Shown here one piece after another: positions 4,097 to 29,607 of a stretch of 30,329 nucleotides of DNA. The stretch is from a virus. Lineage: Duplodnaviria > Heunggongvirae > Uroviricota > Caudoviricetes. The DNA lies in the IMG/VR virus record IMGVR_UViG_3300017766_003306, positions 69,587 through 99,915 of that record. One strand, 5' to 3'. Position numbers and translations under genes: made by a program. Each line of letters begins with the position of its first letter. The first letter of the stretch is position 1. The notes beneath the pieces were generated by a model. It was not told the DNA's origin. It saw only the letters and a program-made list of their open reading frames with translations, and did not search any database.

Positions 4097-4125
4097 TTGA
4101 CAATTAGAACATAGTAATCTATAAT
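4097..4125 (+). promoter_or_regulatory. Perfect sigma70 consensus promoter (early)
   Basis: TTGACA (4097-4102), 17-nt spacer, TATAAT (4120-4125), in a 100-nt intergenic gap. Confidence 0.9.
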
Positions 4126-4365: not shown

Positions 4366-4701
4366 ATGCCCCAAGATATTGGCGTTGCTGTACTTAATCT
4401 ATTATTAGAGTCGTACATAGAACATTATACGACGATAGAAAAAGCGTATTATGAATGCTCTATGTGGAGGTCTATTAGATCTAAAGCTAGAAACATAAAC
4501 TTGATAGATAAATTATCTAACACGTTCATTAGCTTGGATGCAATGAATAAAACGCTACAAGAGCTACAAGAGACGTGGCTAGACGATTCTGAGTATCCCC
4601 CTGAGACTAGCGTAGAGCGTAAAGCTTACGAAGACTTTTTAAGTGCTAGAAACTCATTGACAGAGCGAATCACGTTCTTAGAGAAGTGCTACGCACTTTA
4701 A
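4366..4701 (+). CDS. Hypothetical protein (111 aa, helical)
   Basis: AAGGAG upstream, operon context. No recognised motif. Confidence 0.7.
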   Translation: MPQDIGVAVLNLLLESYIEHYTTIEKAYYECSMWRSIRSKARNINLIDKLSNTFISLDAMNKTLQELQETWLDDSEYPPETSVERKAYEDFLSARNSLTERITFLEKCYAL

Positions 4702-4748: not shown

Positions 4749-5345
4749 ATGCAAGCAAGAAACAGTATGGGATTTTTTGAAGAACCTAATAGACAACCAC
4801 ACCCAACACAAATCCCTCAAAGACATCGGGGTGATCAACAGTATCCCGCTAATGAATACTATGATCATCCGAATCAAAATACTCAAACAACCGTAAACAG
4901 AGTAAGCTTTAAAGCCCACACGTTTCCTGTAATCCTTAAGACGTTTTTACTCACTGTAGTAATTATTGGGGGAGGCGGACTTACTTATGCTCTGACTACT
5001 TACCCACAACTAAATCCACTAAATCCCAAGCCTGCACCTGTCCCAAAATCTGAAGAGTACATCAAGCATGAAGAACACGCTAATGATTGCTTTGCATTTT
5101 ATCAAAAAAACTACGAAGATATTAAGTCAGGCGATAATGTTGCTGTAAATGCAGGGGTATCTTCTTGTTCTGATATTTTCACAGTGACTAGATCAGGGGG
5201 CGACAGTAAAAGCGTGGGAAAGTCGAGTGGCGAAGTAGCGAAGGACGAGTTGTCGGGGGTATCACTCCCCCAACCCCCAAACAACCTACAAAAGTCGTCA
5301 GAGTCAGTAACGGGGCAAGTAGTAGACCCGCTCCCTCACGAGTAA
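4749..5345 (+). CDS. Single-pass membrane protein (198 aa); possible N-terminal part of a frameshift fusion to the transglycosylase
   Basis: AAGGAG upstream. Q/P/N-rich N-terminus, hydrophobic helix VILKTFLLTVVIIGGGGLTYALTT, then a small domain with two Cys. Confidence 0.75.
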   Translation: MQARNSMGFFEEPNRQPHPTQIPQRHRGDQQYPANEYYDHPNQNTQTTVNRVSFKAHTFPVILKTFLLTVVIIGGGGLTYALTTYPQLNPLNPKPAPVPKSEEYIKHEEHANDCFAFYQKNYEDIKSGDNVAVNAGVSSCSDIFTVTRSGGDSKSVGKSSGEVAKDELSGVSLPQPPNNLQKSSESVTGQVVDPLPHE

Positions 5346-6004
5346 CGACTAAACTAGCCCCTATCCCTAAACAATTAGTCTCTTCTAAGCCTGTAGCTAA
5401 GTCTGTCACAGCCCTTAAGAAATCTAAAAGCAGTGTGACAGTCGCTTCTTCTAACTCTACAGCATCATTTTATAGAAAAAGTGTAGGGTTCAGAGAGTTT
5501 GAGTATAGACTTACTAAAAGCTTGACACCTATACACGGAGAAGTAAAAGGGAAAAAACGAGCTTACGACTTATCTGTTTTTGCTTATAAAAAAATGAAGA
5601 TACAACAAGACTTAGGGCGTAAGATTAGCTTAGCTCAGCTCGCTTCTATGATCACTGTACAAGAGAATGCTACTTGGCAACCTAACATCGTAGGGTTCAG
5701 TGGTGATCTAGGTCTTTGTCAAATCAATCATCACGGAAAAAGCAGAGCAGAAGCGTATAGGCTTGTTTGGGATGTAGAGCATAACTTAGATGTAGCTATT
5801 ATATTACTCGGTGAAAAATATGAGACTGCTAAGTGGCTATTGAAGAATAACAAGTACACTTACGGTATAAAGAACACTCAGAAACTATCTACAATGCTCT
5901 ACAACGGGTATCATAAGACAGGGGCTAAATATGCTGATCATGTTTGGACTCAGAAGAACTACGGCTACTTAGCTTTAACAAACGGGAAAGGGGAGTGGTC
6001 TTAA
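5210..6004 (+). CDS. SLT-family lytic transglycosylase; frame open from 5210, first conventional start is GTG at 5435
   Basis: ITVQENATW (catalytic Glu), GDLGLCQIN (GLxQ), WDVEHNLDVA, MLYNG (YN). Preceded by a 75-codon P/K/S-rich open stretch with no ATG/GTG/TTG. No clear SD before 5435. Confidence 0.8.
   Translation, partial: KRGKVEWRSSEGRVVGGITPPTPKQPTKVVRVSNGASSRPAPSRVTTKLAPIPKQLVSSKPVAKSVTALKKSKSSVTVASSNSTASFYRKSVGFREFEYRLTKSLTPIHGEVKGKKRAYDLSVFAYKKMKIQQDLGRKISLAQLASMITVQENATWQPNIVGFSGDLGLCQINHHGKSRAEAYRLVWDVEHNLDVAIILLGEKYETAKWLLKNNKYTYGIKNTQKLSTMLYNGYHKTGAKYADHVWTQKNYGYLALTNGKGEWS
5216..5222 (+). other. Candidate -1 ribosomal frameshift heptamer G GGA AAG
   Basis: In-frame codons are GTG GGA AAG. 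The -1 frame opens at 5210, after TAA at 5207-5209, and runs without a stop to 6004. Confidence 0.5.
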
Positions 6005-6366
6005 TGTCTTTATTCAGTAAAGATAAAGTTGATCCTGAAGTTATAGATAATCATAGACGATTACTAATATCTCGTAGGCTCAATGCTTATATCAAAAAAA
6101 TGATGAAAGATATGGAGTCTATCGTTAATTGGCTAGTTTTATACGACGATATAAAAACTACTACGTCTACCCCTGTTCAACAATTCGGGACTAGCAAAGA
6201 GTCTTTAAGTACGATATTAGACGCTATAGAGCATACAGATAGACGATTAGTTCGGGTAAAAATAATTTACTACCCTGAAAACTTTGGTGTGTATAAACTC
6301 ACATTTGACGCTACCGTCGAGGCGTTATGTGCTGATGATTTAGTATTCGACGAAAATAAGGAGTAG
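6004..6366 (+). CDS. Hypothetical protein (120 aa)
   Basis: Start reassigned from 5944 to ATG 6004, which overlaps the upstream stop (TAATG) and has GGGAG upstream. Confidence 0.7.
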   Translation: MSLFSKDKVDPEVIDNHRRLLISRRLNAYIKKMMKDMESIVNWLVLYDDIKTTTSTPVQQFGTSKESLSTILDAIEHTDRRLVRVKIIYYPENFGVYKLTFDATVEALCADDLVFDENKE

Positions 6367-7497: not shown

Positions 7498-8142
7498 TTA
7501 AACATAAACACACCCGACTCTACAAGTTACTGGGACTAAGTGTTCTAGGAAGTCTACTACGTCTAAGTACTCTATATTTTTTCTCAGATCTGCGGGGAAG
7601 TCGTAAGGAAAATCTATAACTGTACCGCTCGTATAGTACCCAATATCGAAAATAACACAAGCTTCATAATTGTCTGAAACGTCAGGGTGTAGGGTATCAA
7701 AAGCTGATTTAAGCCCTGATGATGCGTCATTGTACATATAGGCGGTGACGGGAAGGGCTAGAGCTGTAAGGGCGGTATTTATGTCTGCAATCGTGCGTAT
7801 GTTGTTAAACTCGAATACTGCATATCTAACCCAATTCCATCGAGTGACAACACTGTTAGGAGTTAGTGATAGGTGTTTTGGAAACTTCCTTGAGCGTGTA
7901 TCTAGTCCGATTATACTCTCCCAAACTCCAACATAGTTTTGGTTAGCTGTTCTAAATGGGAGTAAGTTCTTGAGTAAATCTTCAAAAATATCTTCTATTG
8001 TAGAAAATTGTTCAACATACGTTTTTAAGTATGTTGCGTAGTCAGAACGAACGCCCTCTCCTGAGTATAGAGAATCATAAATACCCCCTTCAGGGAAGTA
8101 GGCGTGTAGTTTTTGCTCAGGCGTTTTATTTGTGATTCCCAT
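7498..8142 (-). CDS. Baseplate wedge protein, Mu gp48-like
   Basis: N-terminal LHAYFPEGGIY, WESIIGL motif, and position directly after the J-like gene. Confidence 0.65.
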   Translation of the reverse strand: MGITNKTPEQKLHAYFPEGGIYDSLYSGEGVRSDYATYLKTYVEQFSTIEDIFEDLLKNLLPFRTANQNYVGVWESIIGLDTRSRKFPKHLSLTPNSVVTRWNWVRYAVFEFNNIRTIADINTALTALALPVTAYMYNDASSGLKSAFDTLHPDVSDNYEACVIFDIGYYTSGTVIDFPYDFPADLRKNIEYLDVVDFLEHLVPVTCRVGCVYV

Positions 8143-10028: not shown

Positions 10029-10552
10029 ACGGCTTTACTCACACCCCCGCTAGTTATTGTCCCTGAGACTCCCCCTACGACTACAGTATCACCTACACGA
10101 GCTATAGGAGACCCTGCCCCTGCACTTCCTCCTATAGTGACTGCACCGCTATTTATTGAAACACTAGGGGCAGTCAGTGTAACCGCTCCGCTACAAGTAA
10201 CACTAGCTGTACCTAACACATCTACTTTAAGTAGACCTTTAGAATCTATGACTATCTCCCCTGTTGACTTTATCCATACATAAGACTTAGATACGGGGTT
10301 GTATACTGCTACATCGCCTGAAGGGAGCCATTTAGGGCGATTGTTTACGTCATCTATGAAAGCTAAAGGGTTATCTGACCCTTCTTCTCCGCTCCCTGTT
10401 ATTACAAATGCGTGGCAACCTTTAGGGGGATTAGAGTAGAATCCGTAGTTTTGAACTTGGGTAACGTCTAGTATCGCCCCATTACAATATGCAGAAGCGA
10501 TAGGGAATGTGTACCCTATATAATTCATTGCTTGAAGTATGGCATCATACAT
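10025..10552 (-). CDS. Baseplate central spike, Mu gp45-like
   Basis: QNYGFYSNPPKG...RPKWLPSGDVAVYN, then short beta-helix repeats and a C-terminal PIARVGD apex. GGAGG SD. Confidence 0.85.
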   Translation of the reverse strand: MYDAILQAMNYIGYTFPIASAYCNGAILDVTQVQNYGFYSNPPKGCHAFVITGSGEEGSDNPLAFIDDVNNRPKWLPSGDVAVYNPVSKSYVWIKSTGEIVIDSKGLLKVDVLGTASVTCSGAVTLTAPSVSINSGAVTIGGSAGAGSPIARVGDTVVVGGVSGTITSGGVSKAV

Positions 10553-18189: not shown

Positions 18190-21100
18190 ATGTCAAACAA
18201 TATAAGAAAGTCGGGTAATTTTTATTTACAGTCTGTCAAAGAAGGAGAGCCATTAGACAAGTCTAATATAGTCTTGATCGTTTTAGATCCCCTTAACGAA
18301 GAAGTAAACAGACTTAAAATGCCCCTACACCCCGAGTCTATAAACCTACTCGCCCAATCATTTAAAGCGTCGGGTAATAGTTTTTCAGATATTGTGATGG
18401 TTAATTGCTGTGGCTTAATCCCTAAAGATCAGCAAGGGTCTGAGACTCAAAAATTAAATTATGGTAAGACTCAGCAGGAAGAATTACACTCTATTATTAA
18501 ACGCCTTAACCCTAAACTAATCATCACTATGGGGTCTCTAGCATTAAAACTTACCGCAATGAGTAATGATAAGATTACAAAGACGCGGGGCAAGTTTAGA
18601 GAGATCAGCGTTATGGGTAAGCACTTCGTGATGTTCCCTACTTACTCCCCAAGCATGATATTTCACTCATTATCGAATGTTGGCGTATTTAATGCAGATA
18701 TAGATAGAATCTCTAAATACATAAACAACGGATTTTCAGAATCGGACAAGCTCGATGGAGTAGTAGATTACTCTTATTGTACAGACTTATCAGAGCTACT
18801 CGACTTGTCCCCTAAACGCATTGTGATAGATACTGAGACTACTGGGTTAGACGTAAGACTCCCTGACGTTTTCCCCTTCTTATGCCAAATTACCTACAAA
18901 GAAGATCACTCTCTATTAGTCCCTATTCAAGACGGATGGAGGATGAAAGAACTGCCTAGAGATCAAGACAAATTATCTAGGCATCTTAGAGAATTACTTT
19001 CTAATCCTAAAGTTTCTAAAATAGGGCATAACTTGAAGTTTGATACTCGTATGCTCCAAAAAGTAGACTTTCCCGTGAAAGGGGTGCTACACGATACGAT
19101 GCTCTTATGTAGAGCTTTAGATGAGAATATGCTAGACAAGTCTTTAAATACTTGCGTCGCTACTTTTGTCCCTAAGTTTGCAGGGTTCAATGATGAAATC
19201 GAAAAAACCCTAGACAAGTCTAAGATGATCGAATGCGACTTAGAGACTCTAAGAGTTTATGCAGGGAACGATACGAACGCTACGTTTAAACTGTTTAATG
19301 TCGTACATGAGAGAGTTAAACAGGACTCGGGGCAATATGGGTGGTACAAAAAAGTAGCTATCCCTGCAATGTCTGTAATCAGCAATCACTTAGAGACGAA
19401 CGGACTAACTATAGATGAAGAAGAGCTTAGACGGGTAAGCATTATCTTATCTAAAGAAGTAAAAGATCTTAGTAATGAGATTTTAGGGATGTGTAGTGAG
19501 TATTTTATCTCTCACTACATTACTACGTCAGGGGGGAAAGCCCCAAACTTAGCGAGCATACCGTTTAAGACCGCTATGCTCTTCTCTAAAGAAGGGTTTA
19601 ACTTGTCCCCTTTAGAGTTTACAGACGCTACTAAAAACAGCAAAAAACCTGTACCCTCTACAAACTCTAAGCACTTAAATAAGATCAAAGATCAGCACCC
19701 GATCATAGATAAGCTACTCGAATACTCTGTTTTGAATAAGCTATCTACGACTTATGTAGGTAGTCCTAAGACTAATCTGAAGCCTGCAAAGGGTCTGTTT
19801 CAGCATATTGTAAAAGGGCGTATTAACCCTTCTTATCACTTACATACGACTGTTACGGGGAGATTATCTTCTAGTAATCCTAATGGTCAGAATCTTCCTA
19901 AGCGAGGTAAGCAAGCAAAGACATTAAGGCGGGCTTTTGTAGCTCCTGAAGGCTATTCTTACGTCGAGTGTGTTAAGAAGGGAACATTAGTTACGACAGA
20001 CAGAGGTCTGCGTCGTGTGGAGACGCTAGAAGTTGGGGACAACGTATTAACGCACTTGAACAGGTTTAAGCCTGTGACGAAGCGTATGTCGTCGAATAAG
20101 ATAGGATATACAATAGAGTTAGACGATGGGAACACGATAGAATGCTCTACTAATCACCCTTTCTTGACTATAAGAAAAGGAAAACTATGTTGGGTAGAAG
20201 CAAAGCACTTGTCAAAGACCGATCATTTACTCTACACGCATAGAGATCCTTATGCTTCAACGATGTCTAGTGATGAGTTTTGGTTTGGGTATCATTCTGT
20301 CAAAGATGGTGGGTATAATAGCGTAGAGATCCCCGAGAATGCTCTCACACTTAGCGAAGAAGCGATGTGTGGCGTAGTTGCTAAGCTCTTTAACGTGTGT
20401 GGGTCTTATCATGCTTCGTCATTCTGTTACGTCTCCAATAGTAGAGAAGATAGAGACATCGTAGCTACTATGTGTAGGCATTTAGGATACTTCGGCGTTT
20501 CCCCTGAAGCCTCTGTACATGATCAATTTAGTTATGTGATATGTGATCAAGACATTTTAAAGTGTCTACCCATTCCCTCTCAGTACAATAAAAACAATCC
20601 CTATAAAGCTTTATGGGACACTGCTGAGAGAGAGTGCATTACTGCCCTCATACCGTCTGAAGAAATATCAATGTGTAAAAAGCAGTTAGCGTCCCATTAT
20701 TGTGATCCTGTAGCGAAGATTTGGAGTCCTATTCCTAGCTATAAGCCTCTAGTAACTAGAACTAGGCTTAAAGAAGCTATACACGCAGTCCCCCAACTAT
20801 ACGCTTTAAAGCAGTTACTCAACTACAGACACATACAGATCAAAAGCATAACGCTAATGAAAGAAGAGCAAGAGTACTTAGACATCACAGTCGAAGACGA
20901 CAAAAGCTTTCATGCAAACAGCATTATCGTTCATAACTGCGACTTCTCACAGATGGAGTTACGGATCATGGCATGGATTGCTAATGTGAAGGGTATGTTA
21001 AAAGCATATTCTGAAGGGCAAGACTTACATGAAGTTACTGCGTGTGGTAACATAATCAACACTGACCCTATAGCTAAAAAGATCTTTAGAGAGCAAGGCA

Positions 21101-21795
21101 TAGATGGAGTAGTAGACTGGTTCCACGAACTTAAGAAATTAGACGATGGAGACCCCTACAAAGCATTCTACAATAAGAAACGACAGGATGCTAAGGGCTT
21201 GAACTTTGGTAACATTTACTTAGTTCAACCTAGAGGGTTGCTTGAGTTTTGTAAGACGACTTACGGTCGTGTAGACATGACGTTAGATGATGCTGAAACA
21301 GAGCAAGAAGCCTACTATAAACAATATCCCGAACTACTCACTTACTTTGATTACTGCCGTAGATTTATCTTAAAGCATGGGTACATAAGAAATGTCTTAG
21401 GTCTAAAGCGTAATCTACCTGACGCATTCTCTGCTACGAATTATAAAGTAGCTGAAGCTGTGAGACAAGGCGTAAATGCGACTGATCAAGGCGTAGGAGC
21501 AATCTTAGCAACGCTCGGTCTTATTGCAGTTGGGGATTGGATAGATAGTCTAGCAGAAATGATATGCTCGATCTATTTATGTGGGATGATTCACGATAGT
21601 TTGGTACTGATCATTAAAGATACGGAACTCGATAATCACATCCCAATAATCGTAAACCTCCTAGAGAATCCCCCAGTTAAAAAACTCTTTAACGTAGATA
21701 TGCCCGTAGAGCTACCAGTAGACGTGCAAGTAGGAAAGAACTTAGCAGAAATGAAAGACTACACTCTTCCTAAATACAGAGTAAGTAAAGCTTAG
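18190..21795 (+). CDS. polA: Family A DNA polymerase with N-terminal UDG-like domain, 3'-5' exonuclease and an intein
   Basis: ExoI IDTETTGL, ExoII HNLKFD, ExoIII YAGND. TVTGRLSSSNPNGQNLP, motif A E/CDFSQMELR, motif B RQDAKGLNFGNIY, motif C IHDS. Confidence 0.95.
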   Translation: MSNNIRKSGNFYLQSVKEGEPLDKSNIVLIVLDPLNEEVNRLKMPLHPESINLLAQSFKASGNSFSDIVMVNCCGLIPKDQQGSETQKLNYGKTQQEELHSIIKRLNPKLIITMGSLALKLTAMSNDKITKTRGKFREISVMGKHFVMFPTYSPSMIFHSLSNVGVFNADIDRISKYINNGFSESDKLDGVVDYSYCTDLSELLDLSPKRIVIDTETTGLDVRLPDVFPFLCQITYKEDHSLLVPIQDGWRMKELPRDQDKLSRHLRELLSNPKVSKIGHNLKFDTRMLQKVDFPVKGVLHDTMLLCRALDENMLDKSLNTCVATFVPKFAGFNDEIEKTLDKSKMIECDLETLRVYAGNDTNATFKLFNVVHERVKQDSGQYGWYKKVAIPAMSVISNHLETNGLTIDEEELRRVSIILSKEVKDLSNEILGMCSEYFISHYITTSGGKAPNLASIPFKTAMLFSKEGFNLSPLEFTDATKNSKKPVPSTNSKHLNKIKDQHPIIDKLLEYSVLNKLSTTYVGSPKTNLKPAKGLFQHIVKGRINPSYHLHTTVTGRLSSSNPNGQNLPKRGKQAKTLRRAFVAPEGYSYVECVKKGTLVTTDRGLRRVETLEVGDNVLTHLNRFKPVTKRMSSNKIGYTIELDDGNTIECSTNHPFLTIRKGKLCWVEAKHLSKTDHLLYTHRDPYASTMSSDEFWFGYHSVKDGGYNSVEIPENALTLSEEAMCGVVAKLFNVCGSYHASSFCYVSNSREDRDIVATMCRHLGYFGVSPEASVHDQFSYVICDQDILKCLPIPSQYNKNNPYKALWDTAERECITALIPSEEISMCKKQLASHYCDPVAKIWSPIPSYKPLVTRTRLKEAIHAVPQLYALKQLLNYRHIQIKSITLMKEEQEYLDITVEDDKSFHANSIIVHNCDFSQMELRIMAWIANVKGMLKAYSEGQDLHEVTACGNIINTDPIAKKIFREQGIDGVVDWFHELKKLDDGDPYKAFYNKKRQDAKGLNFGNIYLVQPRGLLEFCKTTYGRVDMTLDDAETEQEAYYKQYPELLTYFDYCRRFILKHGYIRNVLGLKRNLPDAFSATNYKVAEAVRQGVNATDQGVGAILATLGLIAVGDWIDSLAEMICSIYLCGMIHDSLVLIIKDTELDNHIPIIVNLLENPPVKKLFNVDMPVELPVDVQVGKNLAEMKDYTLPKYRVSKA
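19969..20937 (+). mobile_element. Intein (323 aa) in polymerase motif A, with a degenerate LAGLIDADG remnant
   Basis: Starts CVKKGTLV, block B STNHPF, ends YLDITVEDDKSFHANSIIVHN, +1 residue Cys. Removal restores GYSYVE-CDFSQMELR. Confidence 0.93.
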
Positions 21796-26572: not shown

Positions 26573-27145
26573 TTATCCTAGCAAAGTCGGCGTTCTTTTT
26601 GGCGTTAAGGGTATTTTATCCCAAGAATCATAAACAAGCTTACGAATCTTATCCCCTACTTGATTAGGCTTTGTTTTAGATTTACCTTTTTCGTATGGGA
26701 GATCTGTAATGTCTATTTTACCCGCAGACGAAGACTTAGGGTTTCTTAGACCGAACTCTGCATGAGTATAAATAATCATAGGGTTAAGCATATCTTCTTT
26801 TTTAAACTTCCTGAACTTAAAGTATTCAGCGACTTTCTTACAGATCGCTTCTAAAGATATTTCTGTAAACTCAGAAAGCTTACCGCCTATTTTATATCCC
26901 GTATTTCCGCCACAAACTGCTACACCCAATACCCAACTGTTCCCACCTCCGCAATGCCTTGCATAGTTTTTGCTTGCAGGGATAAGCGTTCTAGCGTTGT
27001 CTTGGGGATGATGTTTACCAGTCACTATTTTACCATCCCACTCAGCTATGTAGTGGTAGTGTTCTTTGTCTGTATCATTAGCTGTGAGTCCACCCGCAGT
27101 CCAGTGTATACAGCATTTTTCGCAGTGTCCTTTTTGATTAGGCAT
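26573..27145 (-). CDS. N-acetylmuramoyl-L-alanine amidase (Amidase_2-type endolysin)
   Basis: IHWTAG, HYHY...DG, YARHCGGGNS.VLGVAVC, THAE, GKIDI; probable Zn ligands His/His/Asp. Confidence 0.85.
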   Translation of the reverse strand: MPNQKGHCEKCCIHWTAGGLTANDTDKEHYHYIAEWDGKIVTGKHHPQDNARTLIPASKNYARHCGGGNSWVLGVAVCGGNTGYKIGGKLSEFTEISLEAICKKVAEYFKFRKFKKEDMLNPMIIYTHAEFGLRNPKSSSAGKIDITDLPYEKGKSKTKPNQVGDKIRKLVYDSWDKIPLTPKRTPTLLG

Positions 27146-27156
27146 TATATTTATCC

Positions 27157-29607
27157 TTATTTTCTCATATAGCTTGGAGTATTAGCAGGAATTAACTTAC
27201 TCGGTTTACCCGATGTCGTTGTTTTTTGGGGGAGTACTGTGTGACCTGTTCCTTTTGTAATCACTGTCTGAGTACCCACCCTAGCTTTTCCGTTCTCATC
27301 GACTACAGTAATTTTGACTTCTGATTTAGAGCCTTGCTCAGCTTTATTTCCGCCAAATACGAAACTACCATCCATTACACTAGCCATAGTGTTACCTGCC
27401 CACGCCCAAAAAGCATTCCACTGATCGCCCAAGTATTTAAAGAAGCCTGATACTCCGTTCCAAACACTCGCCCTAACTTGTGACCCGCTCTTAGTGAAGA
27501 ATAGCCACCATAATGTCCCCAATACAACGAGTATTCCAACAACCCAAGCTAAAGCTATCCCCGCAGTAGTGCCTAAGAAAGCAACTATAGAATTGAATAC
27601 GACGGGTACAGCCCCAACTATCCACGTCCAAGTGCTTTTTAGCAGGGCGGGTAAAGTTACTGAGAAGAATGTAAGGACGGGCTGAACCCATTGGAACGTA
27701 ACAGCCCCCTTTATGCTATTCCCCACGCCCTTCAGAACTCCTGCTCCCGCAGTCTCTCCGAATACAGTTTTAGCAAACCCCACCCCAGTAAGTCTTCCTA
27801 AGAATAATTCAGCAACACTCCACAAAATAGGCGTTATCGCTAATGTAAACAATCCTGCAAGTGTTGCAGTGACTTTAGGATACCTACGGAAGAAGTCCCC
27901 TAAGTGCTTCATCAACCAAGACAAGCCATTTAAGATTACTACAAGTGCAGGCTCTACAGCTTTAATGAACGAGTCAGAGAAGATCTTATAACTTTCAGCT
28001 ACTCGTTGCATTGCAGGTTCAAGAGTTTGTAGGTAGTTTGCTACTGAAGCCTCGTACTTTAGCTGTGCCTGAGTTTTACCCTTGCCGTCTTTTTTAGTCG
28101 CCCCTTCTTTACCTATTTTCAAATACTCAGCCATACCTTCAATGTTATCTACGACTGTTACTAGGTCTTTTGCTCGTACCCCTGCTAAATCAGCAAGTGT
28201 AGAGATGATAGGCTCAGCGTCTTTTCCTTCTTTAGACAACGCTTTAATTCTATACATAAGCGTCATAATTGTTCTACTCGCATCGTCTTTCATGTCTTGT
28301 TTTAAAGACTTTTGACTATACCCTAAAGAAGCTAACGCACCTATTTGCGTCTTTGTTTTACCCCCTGAAGCAGCAGTCTCTACGAGTTTAAGCAAGCCTA
28401 ATGTTCCTGTCATTGCTTGAGGCGAAAATTGTTGAACATAAGACTGCATACCAATATAATCAGACGAACTCATACCTAAAGTTCTACCCGTTCCTGCTCC
28501 TCGTCTCATGCCTGACAGTATTTGTTGCGTATTAACAGTACCCCCCGCCATATCATCATACATACTCAAGATTTTTAGATCTTCGAGAGCTTTTCTTAGA
28601 CCCGCATCTATACCTACAACTTTTCCATTCTTGTCTTTTTCCCCTGCATATACTTTACCCATAGAAGTTAAGTACCCAGAAACTTGACCCGACTCTAAGC
28701 CTAACGCTTTAGCCCCTAACACAGCTTCTTTCGCAGTTTTTTGGATTCGGTTTGCCATAGCTTTACCATCTTTTAAGTCCCCCGTAACGCCCCCTTTAGC
28801 TAAGTCAATATACATTCCATACACGTCTTCTACACTTACGCCAATATCATAAGACGTTTGCTGTACTGATTTAACTAAGTATTCAGTATCTTTAGCGTTT
28901 ATTTGTAAAGCTTTTCTCACTTTTAGAGCGAGTTGTTGTCTCTCAGAGTATCCTTTTACAGCAGAAGTCAGCATAAATCCGCCTAATAAAGCACCAGTCC
29001 ACGAAGGCGTAAATGCAGTATTGTTCTTGGATTTATGCCCAGTCCAATTATCGCCTCTATGTCTACCTCCACCCCCACGACTTGTAGAAGGGACTATGTT
29101 CCCTAATTCATCAACAGTAAGGGGTGAGTATCTAGCGGGTCTGCCTTGTCTTTGCAATCTTCTATTTTCTGCTATCTGCCTACCCGTCAACCCTGAACCA
29201 TATATTACAGGAGAGGCTCCTCCCATAGCAGTAGCGACAGCCTCATTTACGCCCCCCATATTGTTTACAGCAGTTCTAGCTCTCTTTGCAGAAGCAACGA
29301 CTTCATTAAACTTAGCTTTAGATCTATCTACATAATCTCGTGTAGAGTTGTAAGCTTTAGTAAGCCCCTCACTAGCTTGTCGTGCATAATCAGTAAACGA
29401 TCTACCCGTATTCTTGACGACTCTACCCAGTTTAGTAACCTTCTTTTCGCTTGGGTCAGTGTTGCTTGAAATAGCTTTACCTGTGTCTTTAAACGCTTTC
29501 CCAATAATCCGTTTAAATGTCGCCGTATTCTTTTGTATCGTCAAAAGTTTAGCAGAGATCAGATCAATAAGCTCTAATCGCATAGATGCTGATAATTTAT
29601 CACTCAT
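27157..29607 (-). CDS. Tail tape measure protein (816 aa)
   Basis: N-terminal LELIDLISAKL, long A/G/K-rich helical core, hydrophobic and Trp-periodic C-terminal part. Confidence 0.85.
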   Translation of the reverse strand: MSDKLSASMRLELIDLISAKLLTIQKNTATFKRIIGKAFKDTGKAISSNTDPSEKKVTKLGRVVKNTGRSFTDYARQASEGLTKAYNSTRDYVDRSKAKFNEVVASAKRARTAVNNMGGVNEAVATAMGGASPVIYGSGLTGRQIAENRRLQRQGRPARYSPLTVDELGNIVPSTSRGGGGRHRGDNWTGHKSKNNTAFTPSWTGALLGGFMLTSAVKGYSERQQLALKVRKALQINAKDTEYLVKSVQQTSYDIGVSVEDVYGMYIDLAKGGVTGDLKDGKAMANRIQKTAKEAVLGAKALGLESGQVSGYLTSMGKVYAGEKDKNGKVVGIDAGLRKALEDLKILSMYDDMAGGTVNTQQILSGMRRGAGTGRTLGMSSSDYIGMQSYVQQFSPQAMTGTLGLLKLVETAASGGKTKTQIGALASLGYSQKSLKQDMKDDASRTIMTLMYRIKALSKEGKDAEPIISTLADLAGVRAKDLVTVVDNIEGMAEYLKIGKEGATKKDGKGKTQAQLKYEASVANYLQTLEPAMQRVAESYKIFSDSFIKAVEPALVVILNGLSWLMKHLGDFFRRYPKVTATLAGLFTLAITPILWSVAELFLGRLTGVGFAKTVFGETAGAGVLKGVGNSIKGAVTFQWVQPVLTFFSVTLPALLKSTWTWIVGAVPVVFNSIVAFLGTTAGIALAWVVGILVVLGTLWWLFFTKSGSQVRASVWNGVSGFFKYLGDQWNAFWAWAGNTMASVMDGSFVFGGNKAEQGSKSEVKITVVDENGKARVGTQTVITKGTGHTVLPQKTTTSGKPSKLIPANTPSYMRK

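Follow-up and report, generated by a model that had tools for sequence, protein, structure and literature searches.

A candidate programmed -1 frameshift between a membrane anchor gene and an SLT-like lytic transglycosylase gene in a tailed phage

How is a wall hydrolase made when its reading frame opens far upstream of any start codon? The question is raised by a 30,329-nucleotide (nt) stretch of tailed-phage DNA (the window; bases 69587-99915 of the 99.9-kb viral contig IMGVR_UViG_3300017766_003306 of IMG/VR, 38% GC). Here an open reading frame (ORF) resembling an SLT-type lytic transglycosylase overlaps, in the -1 frame, the end of an ORF for a small membrane protein, the anchor. We consider it probable that a programmed -1 frameshift at positions 5216-5222 of the window yields two products, an anchor-only protein and a minor fusion of anchor, linker and SLT domain. 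Coordinates below are those of the window unless stated otherwise.

Two overlapping frames and a slippery heptamer

The locus comprises the following features:

4749-5345, plus strand: 0-frame ORF of 198 amino acids (aa), 21.8 kDa, the anchor-only protein, from ORF reading and translation
4923-5003, plus strand: single hydrophobic transmembrane (TM) segment of the anchor, residues 59-85 (Kyte-Doolittle 19-residue maximum 1.92)
5195-5200, plus strand: internal Shine-Dalgarno (SD)-like AGGGGG, a candidate upstream stimulator 15 nt 5' of the heptamer (-9.4 kcal/mol)
5207-5209, plus strand: TAA, the last stop of the -1 frame, which is open from 5210 (read from the sequence)
5216-5222, plus strand: slippery heptamer G_GGA_AAG, in phase, where the -1 shift is proposed; the 0 frame reads GTG GGA AAG, with GGA and AAG as codons
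5222-5434, plus strand, -1 frame: start-less, basic linker rich in S, V, P and K, 71 residues with a net charge of +12 when translated after the slip
5223-5345, plus strand: overlap of 41 codons, apparently dual-coded (GC content, wobble T and resampling), where the 0 frame encodes the acidic tail and the -1 frame the first part of the basic linker
5276-5282, plus strand: C_CCA_AAC, a second heptamer in phase, lying within the overlap, that may serve as a minor or alternative shift site (read from the sequence)
5435-6004, plus strand: SLT-like lytic transglycosylase ORF in the gene-caller version, 189 aa from a GTG start (Pfam SLT match at 5627-5881)

The anchor ORF is preceded by the SD AAGGAG (-8.5 kcal/mol; all SD energies were computed against a generic anti-SD). 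It encodes a Q/P-rich N-terminal head, one TM helix, a domain with two cysteines (C114 and C140) and a 40-residue acidic tail, and its orientation is presumably N-in. The protein has no match in Pfam, PHROG or NCBIfam, and an ESM Atlas search with it gave nothing.

The -1 frame runs open from 5210 to the TAA at 6002-6004. Its first 75 codons contain no ATG, GTG or TTG, the first start being GTG 5435, and this start-less extension is the largest among the 132 ORFs of the contig (the next measures 40 codons, the median 6). The SD energy at GTG 5435 is -1.4 kcal/mol, like that of random positions, while operon neighbours range from -5.9 to -8.8. A start there would also leave an 89-nt gap in an operon that is otherwise tightly packed. 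The stretch 5345-5434, past the 0-frame stop, has a coding score of 7.3, which is typical of a true reading frame. An earlier, sequence-only reading of this DNA had pointed to the opening at 5210, the 75 start-less codons and the missing SD at GTG 5435, and each of these stands.

These data bear directly on the possibility that the two genes are independent and no fusion is made. The SLT-like protein would then start at GTG 5435 or at a non-canonical codon, and it would either remain cytoplasmic until released by a holin, possibly the upstream protein, or be packaged in the virion like T7 gp16. Gene callers annotate the 189-aa ORF in all three sources, and the SLT fold could begin right after residue 76 of the stop-to-stop translation. 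A baseplate operon lies 1.5 kb from the SLT ORF. Soluble endolysins manage without an export signal, as do SLT proteins carried in the virion, such as T7 gp16, whose annotation is that of an internal virion protein containing an endolysin domain. This weakens the earlier argument that, for lack of an export signal, a fusion would be needed. The random-like SD at GTG 5435 nevertheless speaks against independent genes, as do the open, start-less and coding-like 75 codons upstream of it, the extreme outlier of the contig. Furthermore, the -1 frame is constrained from 5210 and not from 5435 (see below), the upstream ORF matches no holin family, and no usable SD spacing is found at ATC 5261 or ATC 5365, the sole near-cognate candidates. 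We thus hold this explanation to be quite unlikely.

A frameshift, by comparison, has a well-placed candidate site. Two codons after the -1 frame opens sits G_GGA_AAG, a sequence described as highly shift-prone in E. coli and identical to the lambda G/GT site (PMC5009743, PMC3296357). GGGAAAG occurs in phase just twice in the contig, once at 5216-5222. Among the 19 in-phase XXXAAAG heptamers in contig genes, the one at 5216-5222 is followed by 260 open -1 codons and the others by 1-41. Translation confirms the phasing of the heptamer and the fusion predicted earlier, as a slip at this site gives a 418-aa, 46.6-kDa product with the junction SVGK-VEWR. Upstream, the predicted pairing energy of AGGGGG exceeds that of nearby real SDs and is reached by 1.15% of the 26-nt windows of the contig; dnaX and ~56% of insertion sequence (IS) frameshift sites have a 5' SD as stimulator. 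The second heptamer, C_CCA_AAC, is found in phase five times elsewhere in the contig, and no significant structure lies downstream of it at 5276-5282.

Coding signal in both frames of the overlap

No other 136-nt stretch of the contig is as rich in GC as the overlap region 5210-5345, with 55% GC compared with 39% around it and a contig mean of 38%. Other stretches of the contig above 52% GC lie only at 2325-2345, 10045-10055 and 27595-27645. Positions whose coordinate modulo 3 equals 2 are the wobble positions of the 0 frame and the first positions of the -1 frame. T occupies ~40% of these positions up to 5207, and then only 5228 and 5336 until 5375. This leaves T at 2 of 44 0-frame third positions, a count as low as is seen in 0.02% of gene windows. 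Since the depletion begins at 5208, the -1 frame must be constrained within a few codons of the heptamer and not further downstream, which argues against a shift or indel at the runs of five G or five C and against one at C_CCA_AAC 5276-5282.

We further assessed dual coding by holding the protein of one frame fixed, resampling its synonymous codons by contig usage and scoring the other frame. With the -1 protein fixed, the 0 frame is open in 2.5% of resamples, and its observed score (4.18, compared with -5.66 +/- 2.63; z 3.7) is reached by none of the ~3,760 open resamples. With the 0-frame protein fixed, the -1 frame is open in 0.24% of resamples, and the observed score has a z of 2.3. The codon usage of the -1 frame in its own right (P 0.0004) and that of the other frame (P 0.009) are abnormally poor in the overlap; a plain codon-usage score favours the 0 frame across the whole overlap. 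As calibration we used the contig's other long off-frame open runs, 56 in number, which gave z values with a mean of -0.04, a standard deviation of 0.95 and a maximum of 2.49, from which we conclude that the resampling test is calibrated. The longest of the off-frame open runs (74, 70 and 57 codons) fall in an 816-aa minus-strand gene, at 27378-27715 and 29331-29540, partly in a GC-rich patch. In the calibration the run at 27378 has a 0.4% chance of being open and a coding z of just 1.8.

Conditional resampling thus finds both frames of the overlap compromised, yet each looks more like coding sequence than an off-frame read does. Such a pattern is the mark of sequence in which two proteins have been encoded together for a long time, and it is hard to square with a recent deletion or an assembly error. 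Under single-indel models so long an overlap has a chance of 0.5-3%, whatever the site.

One competing explanation starts from a single 418-aa anchor-SLT gene that lost 1 nt in a recent natural deletion. The gene would now be broken, and accidental slippage would rescue it in part at best. Among split genes, lesions are far commoner than programmed sites, and the change of frame character at 5208-5228 fits a deletion as well as it fits a programmed site. Moreover, a deletion such as GGGG to GGG or AAAA to AAA at 5216-5221, in GGGGAAAG or GGGAAAAG, yields an in-phase G_GGA_AAG by construction. The 0-frame tail at 5223-5345 would be meaningless after such an event, whereas it is open where only 2.5% of resamples are and its score exceeds those of all open resamples, with a z above that of every control. 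The poor codon usage of the -1 frame is likewise what is expected from long sharing with another frame, and 0.76% of random 1-nt deletions have an XXXAAAG in phase no more than 9 nt away. The coding signal in both frames over 41 codons therefore argues against a recent indel, and we judge this explanation unlikely.

The same statistics oppose any other single-indel model, including an assembly or sequencing error that dropped one base in 5210-5345 from a gene that is in reality continuous, for example in the G run at 5255-5259 or the C runs at 5267-5271 and 5274-5278. These three 5-nt homopolymers are the grounds for suspecting such an error. The JGI and Logan assemblies, made with two different assemblers, are identical over 6.5 kb. 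The SLT part, 5382-6015, is also matched by ENA contig k141_1330768 (MEGAHIT), whose Illumina Nextera library is the one library of visible chemistry, and 5-nt runs are rarely miscalled at consensus level with this chemistry. An error of this kind is highly improbable. k141_1330768 begins with a Nextera transposase adapter left untrimmed at positions 1-18, GATGTGTATAAGAGACAG; a second deposited assembly thus also contains the phage or a segment 100% identical to it.

The earlier proposal that a -1 slip gives a fusion beside the 198-aa anchor therefore gains support from four sides, namely the switch in frame character at the heptamer, the dual-coding signal, the upstream SD-like element and the identical assemblies.

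The SLT-like domain, its relatives and the points against a programmed shift

The downstream ORF appears from its sequence to be SLT-like but divergent. It contains the motifs QENATWQP, GDLGLCQIN and LYNGY, which are of the catalytic Glu E-S/E-N, G-L-x-Q and Y-N-x-G types in that order, with the putative catalytic Glu codon at 5663-5665, residue 306 of the predicted fusion. In an alignment with a canonical phage SLT protein (MT836754.1; pairwise E 4e-8), the first two correspond to RESSYQP and GDFGLMQIN, and by eye the motifs also match TES, GPLGMMQ and AYNQG of T7 gp16. Muralytic activity of the domain would follow from this resemblance.

The closest detectable SLT relative is the protein behind this alignment, an unannotated 204-aa ORF at 2246-2860 of MT836754.1, itself an unannotated GenBank phage fragment. 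It carries a clear hydrophobic N-terminus of signal or lipoprotein type and a canonical SLT domain within a single ORF. An ESM Atlas search with the SLT-like ORF gave weak leads, namely small phage hypothetical proteins and one SLT cluster. The other searches came back with less. An exhaustive phmmer search of 1.84 billion representatives with the SLT-like ORF recovered only the query itself, and a word-indexed protein search found nothing for it, nor for the anchor, whether at near or at longer lengths. Scans of IMG/VR with both proteins and with two larger flanking genes were empty, as were exact-pattern scans of metagenome and viral contigs. A PDB sequence search returned nothing relevant, neither PDB nor NCBIfam holds a match to the SLT-like protein, and blastn and tblastn against GenBank phages gave one weak SLT match as their sole result. 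For the DNA polymerase of this phage, the best phage matches are below 30% identity.

Several points weigh against a programmed shift into an SLT domain, and they concern the enzyme, the comparative evidence and the site. On hidden Markov model score the SLT assignment is borderline, as PF01464 (GH23-type) falls on both sides of its cut-off of 21.3 bits, scoring 22.9 in a search of all six frames of the contig and 21.0 with the stop-to-stop translation; the single-sequence AlphaFold2 model of the ORF, with a mean predicted local distance difference test (pLDDT) score of 39, is unusable. The usual proof is conservation of the heptamer and of both frames, and neither the anchor nor the SLT protein has a relative among 15 billion proteins, IMG/VR, JGI metagenome contigs and GenBank phages, save for the one weak SLT match. 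The support for dual coding accordingly comes from one sequence and from null models of our own. At the site itself, no downstream stem-loop or pseudoknot beats shuffles in four folds around both heptamers. The SD of dnaX lies 10 nt from its heptamer and the tested optimum is 10-14 nt, so that the 15 nt seen here is longer. Finally, a second tRNA-Lys, present in about half of bacteria, would lower slippage on A_AAG if the host has one.

The complementary G/C blocks behind the heptamer had been put forward earlier as lying at non-canonical spacing. The minimum free energy fold pairs GGGGGT (5255-5260) with ACCCCC (5273-5278), and the spacing is indeed non-canonical, the pairing beginning 21-32 nt past the heptamer; with a z of -1.1 against shuffles, it is not a credible stimulator.

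Further candidates were considered and set aside. A Rz/Rz1-type spanin pair is rejected on the absence of a start, lipobox or Cys from the -1 head, and transcriptional slippage on homopolymer runs of just 3-5 nt. Initiation at the near-cognate ATC codons was dropped. A cassette of holin and soluble endolysin does not describe the locus, in which the anchor ORF resembles no holin family and the SLT ORF has no SD-backed start. Neither does a signal-arrest-release (SAR) endolysin, as the TM helix (residues 59-85, hydropathy 1.92) sits in a separate frame from the enzyme.

Proposed mechanism, genomic setting and comparison with known systems

Taken together, these observations favour a programmed -1 ribosomal frameshift by which one transcription unit would give two proteins. 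Most ribosomes would read 4749-5345 to its stop and produce a 198-aa bitopic membrane protein, whose Q/P-rich head would lie in the cytoplasm and whose TM helix would lead to a small outer domain with two Cys and to an acidic tail. A minority would slip back one base on G_GGA_AAG, where tRNA-Gly and tRNA-Lys could re-pair on GGG_AAA, and AGGGGG, 15 nt upstream, may help them to do so. The slipped ribosomes would continue through the basic 71-residue linker into the SLT-type lytic transglycosylase domain, and the resulting 418-aa, 46.6-kDa enzyme would be tethered to the membrane on its cell-wall side. That slippage occurs, and how often, we infer; the identical heptamer of lambda gives ~4%. 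As for function, we would guess at dose-limited, local cutting of peptidoglycan, with the anchor-only form as partner or regulator. The earlier reading had suggested that the locus may act in superinfection exclusion or in remodelling of the wall.

The setting of the locus begins with an element upstream:

4097-4125, plus strand: sigma-70-type promoter-like site TTGACA-17-TATAAT, apparently heading the small-gene operon, by its match to the consensus

All 12 of its 12 consensus positions match, so the consensus promoter noted earlier at 4097 is borne out as a sequence. Small, tightly packed genes with strong SDs follow it. The plus-strand block 5' of the locus encodes a RusA-like resolvase, an exonuclease and two unknown genes. 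At 4683-4699, the very end of the ORF at 4366-4701 and 50 nt 5' of the anchor gene, stands a hairpin that resembles a terminator and has a T-rich tail. Judging by its sequence, it could attenuate read-through from the 4097 promoter; terminator-like sites in this region are no more numerous than in shuffles. Downstream, a convergent minus-strand baseplate operon (Baseplate_J, Mu gp45-like) begins at 7498, ~1.5 kb off, and the earlier statement that the locus lies away from the virion genes is therefore not upheld. A weak Amidase_2 candidate endolysin is encoded at 26573-27145, distant from the anchor and SLT genes.

The contig carries a cluster of seven tRNA genes outside the window, at contig positions 36202-37198 (Arg-tct, Thr-tgt, Asp-gtc, two Met, Tyr and Ser-tga). 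None of the seven encodes the tRNA-Lys or tRNA-Gly relevant to slippage at G_GGA_AAG. The 1201-aa DNA polymerase (18190-21795) matches polymerase PHROGs on both sides of residues ~593-705, and that segment instead matches unrelated PHROGs (ribonucleotide reductase, helicase, unknown). An intein, or an insertion of a similar kind, would give such a pattern.

If the slip is real, it accounts for how an SLT domain without a signal reaches peptidoglycan, and it provides a translational means of limiting an enzyme as dangerous as a wall cutter to a few per cent of the amount of the anchor protein, its partner. Gene callers split the locus into two unrelated "hypothetical" ORFs and thereby would hide a membrane-tethered muralytic enzyme. 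To our knowledge, tailed phages rarely use programmed frameshifts outside the tail chaperones and a few capsid genes, and in the literature searched we found no frameshift that joins a membrane anchor to a wall hydrolase. We tentatively suggest, with rather less confidence than the frameshift itself, that the locus is an orphan of a widespread and undescribed class of phage recoding. Its members would rely on a -1 slip to fix the ratio of the anchor-only form to the anchor-wall-hydrolase form, and here the 41-codon overlap would give the short form a selected acidic tail of its own. By analogy with holin and antiholin, or with G and GT, the products would then be partners, a regulator and an enzyme, and not a protein with its by-product. 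The single-sequence test for dual coding, which combines resampling with genome-wide calibration, can be used for other orphan candidates that lack homologues.

Among known systems, two architectures place a comparable enzyme at the membrane by simpler means. In the 204-aa ORF of MT836754.1, as here, a hydrophobic N-terminal segment and a linker precede an SLT domain with E-x4-QP and GD-x-GL-x-QIN. Anchor and enzyme share one frame and a normal start in that phage, whereas here two frames would be joined by the slip alone; the anchor gene described here also adds a 58-residue cytoplasmic head and the two-Cys domain. SAR endolysins such as P1 Lyz and phage 21 R are membrane-tethered muralytic enzymes with the catalytic domain on the wall side, an arrangement that the predicted fusion would share. 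Their SAR domain is weakly hydrophobic, lies at the extreme N-terminus and belongs to one ORF with the enzyme, while the TM helix of the anchor follows a long cytoplasmic head and the tether would depend on recoding.

The proposed recoding itself finds its closest parallels elsewhere. At lambda G/GT, ~4% of ribosomes shift with no elaborate structure required, and the identical G_GGA_AAG turns one mRNA into a short major product and a C-terminally extended minor fusion (PMC3296357). The lambda 0-frame stop follows almost directly after the site, in contrast to the 41-codon and apparently dual-coded overlap seen here. The lambda products are tape-measure chaperones, whereas the present pair, an unrelated membrane anchor and a wall hydrolase, occupies another genomic position. 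E. coli dnaX and the -1 sites of IS elements share with this locus a heptamer of the X_XXA_AAG type and a 5' Shine-Dalgarno-like element, here a candidate stimulator (PMC5009743). dnaX differs in having a 3' stem-loop, where no significant 3' structure is found here, and in a shifted product that is shorter and not longer. The proposed mechanism is thus tandem slippage of the lambda G/GT and dnaX kind, and joining an anchor to a wall hydrolase would be a use of it that the literature searched does not describe.

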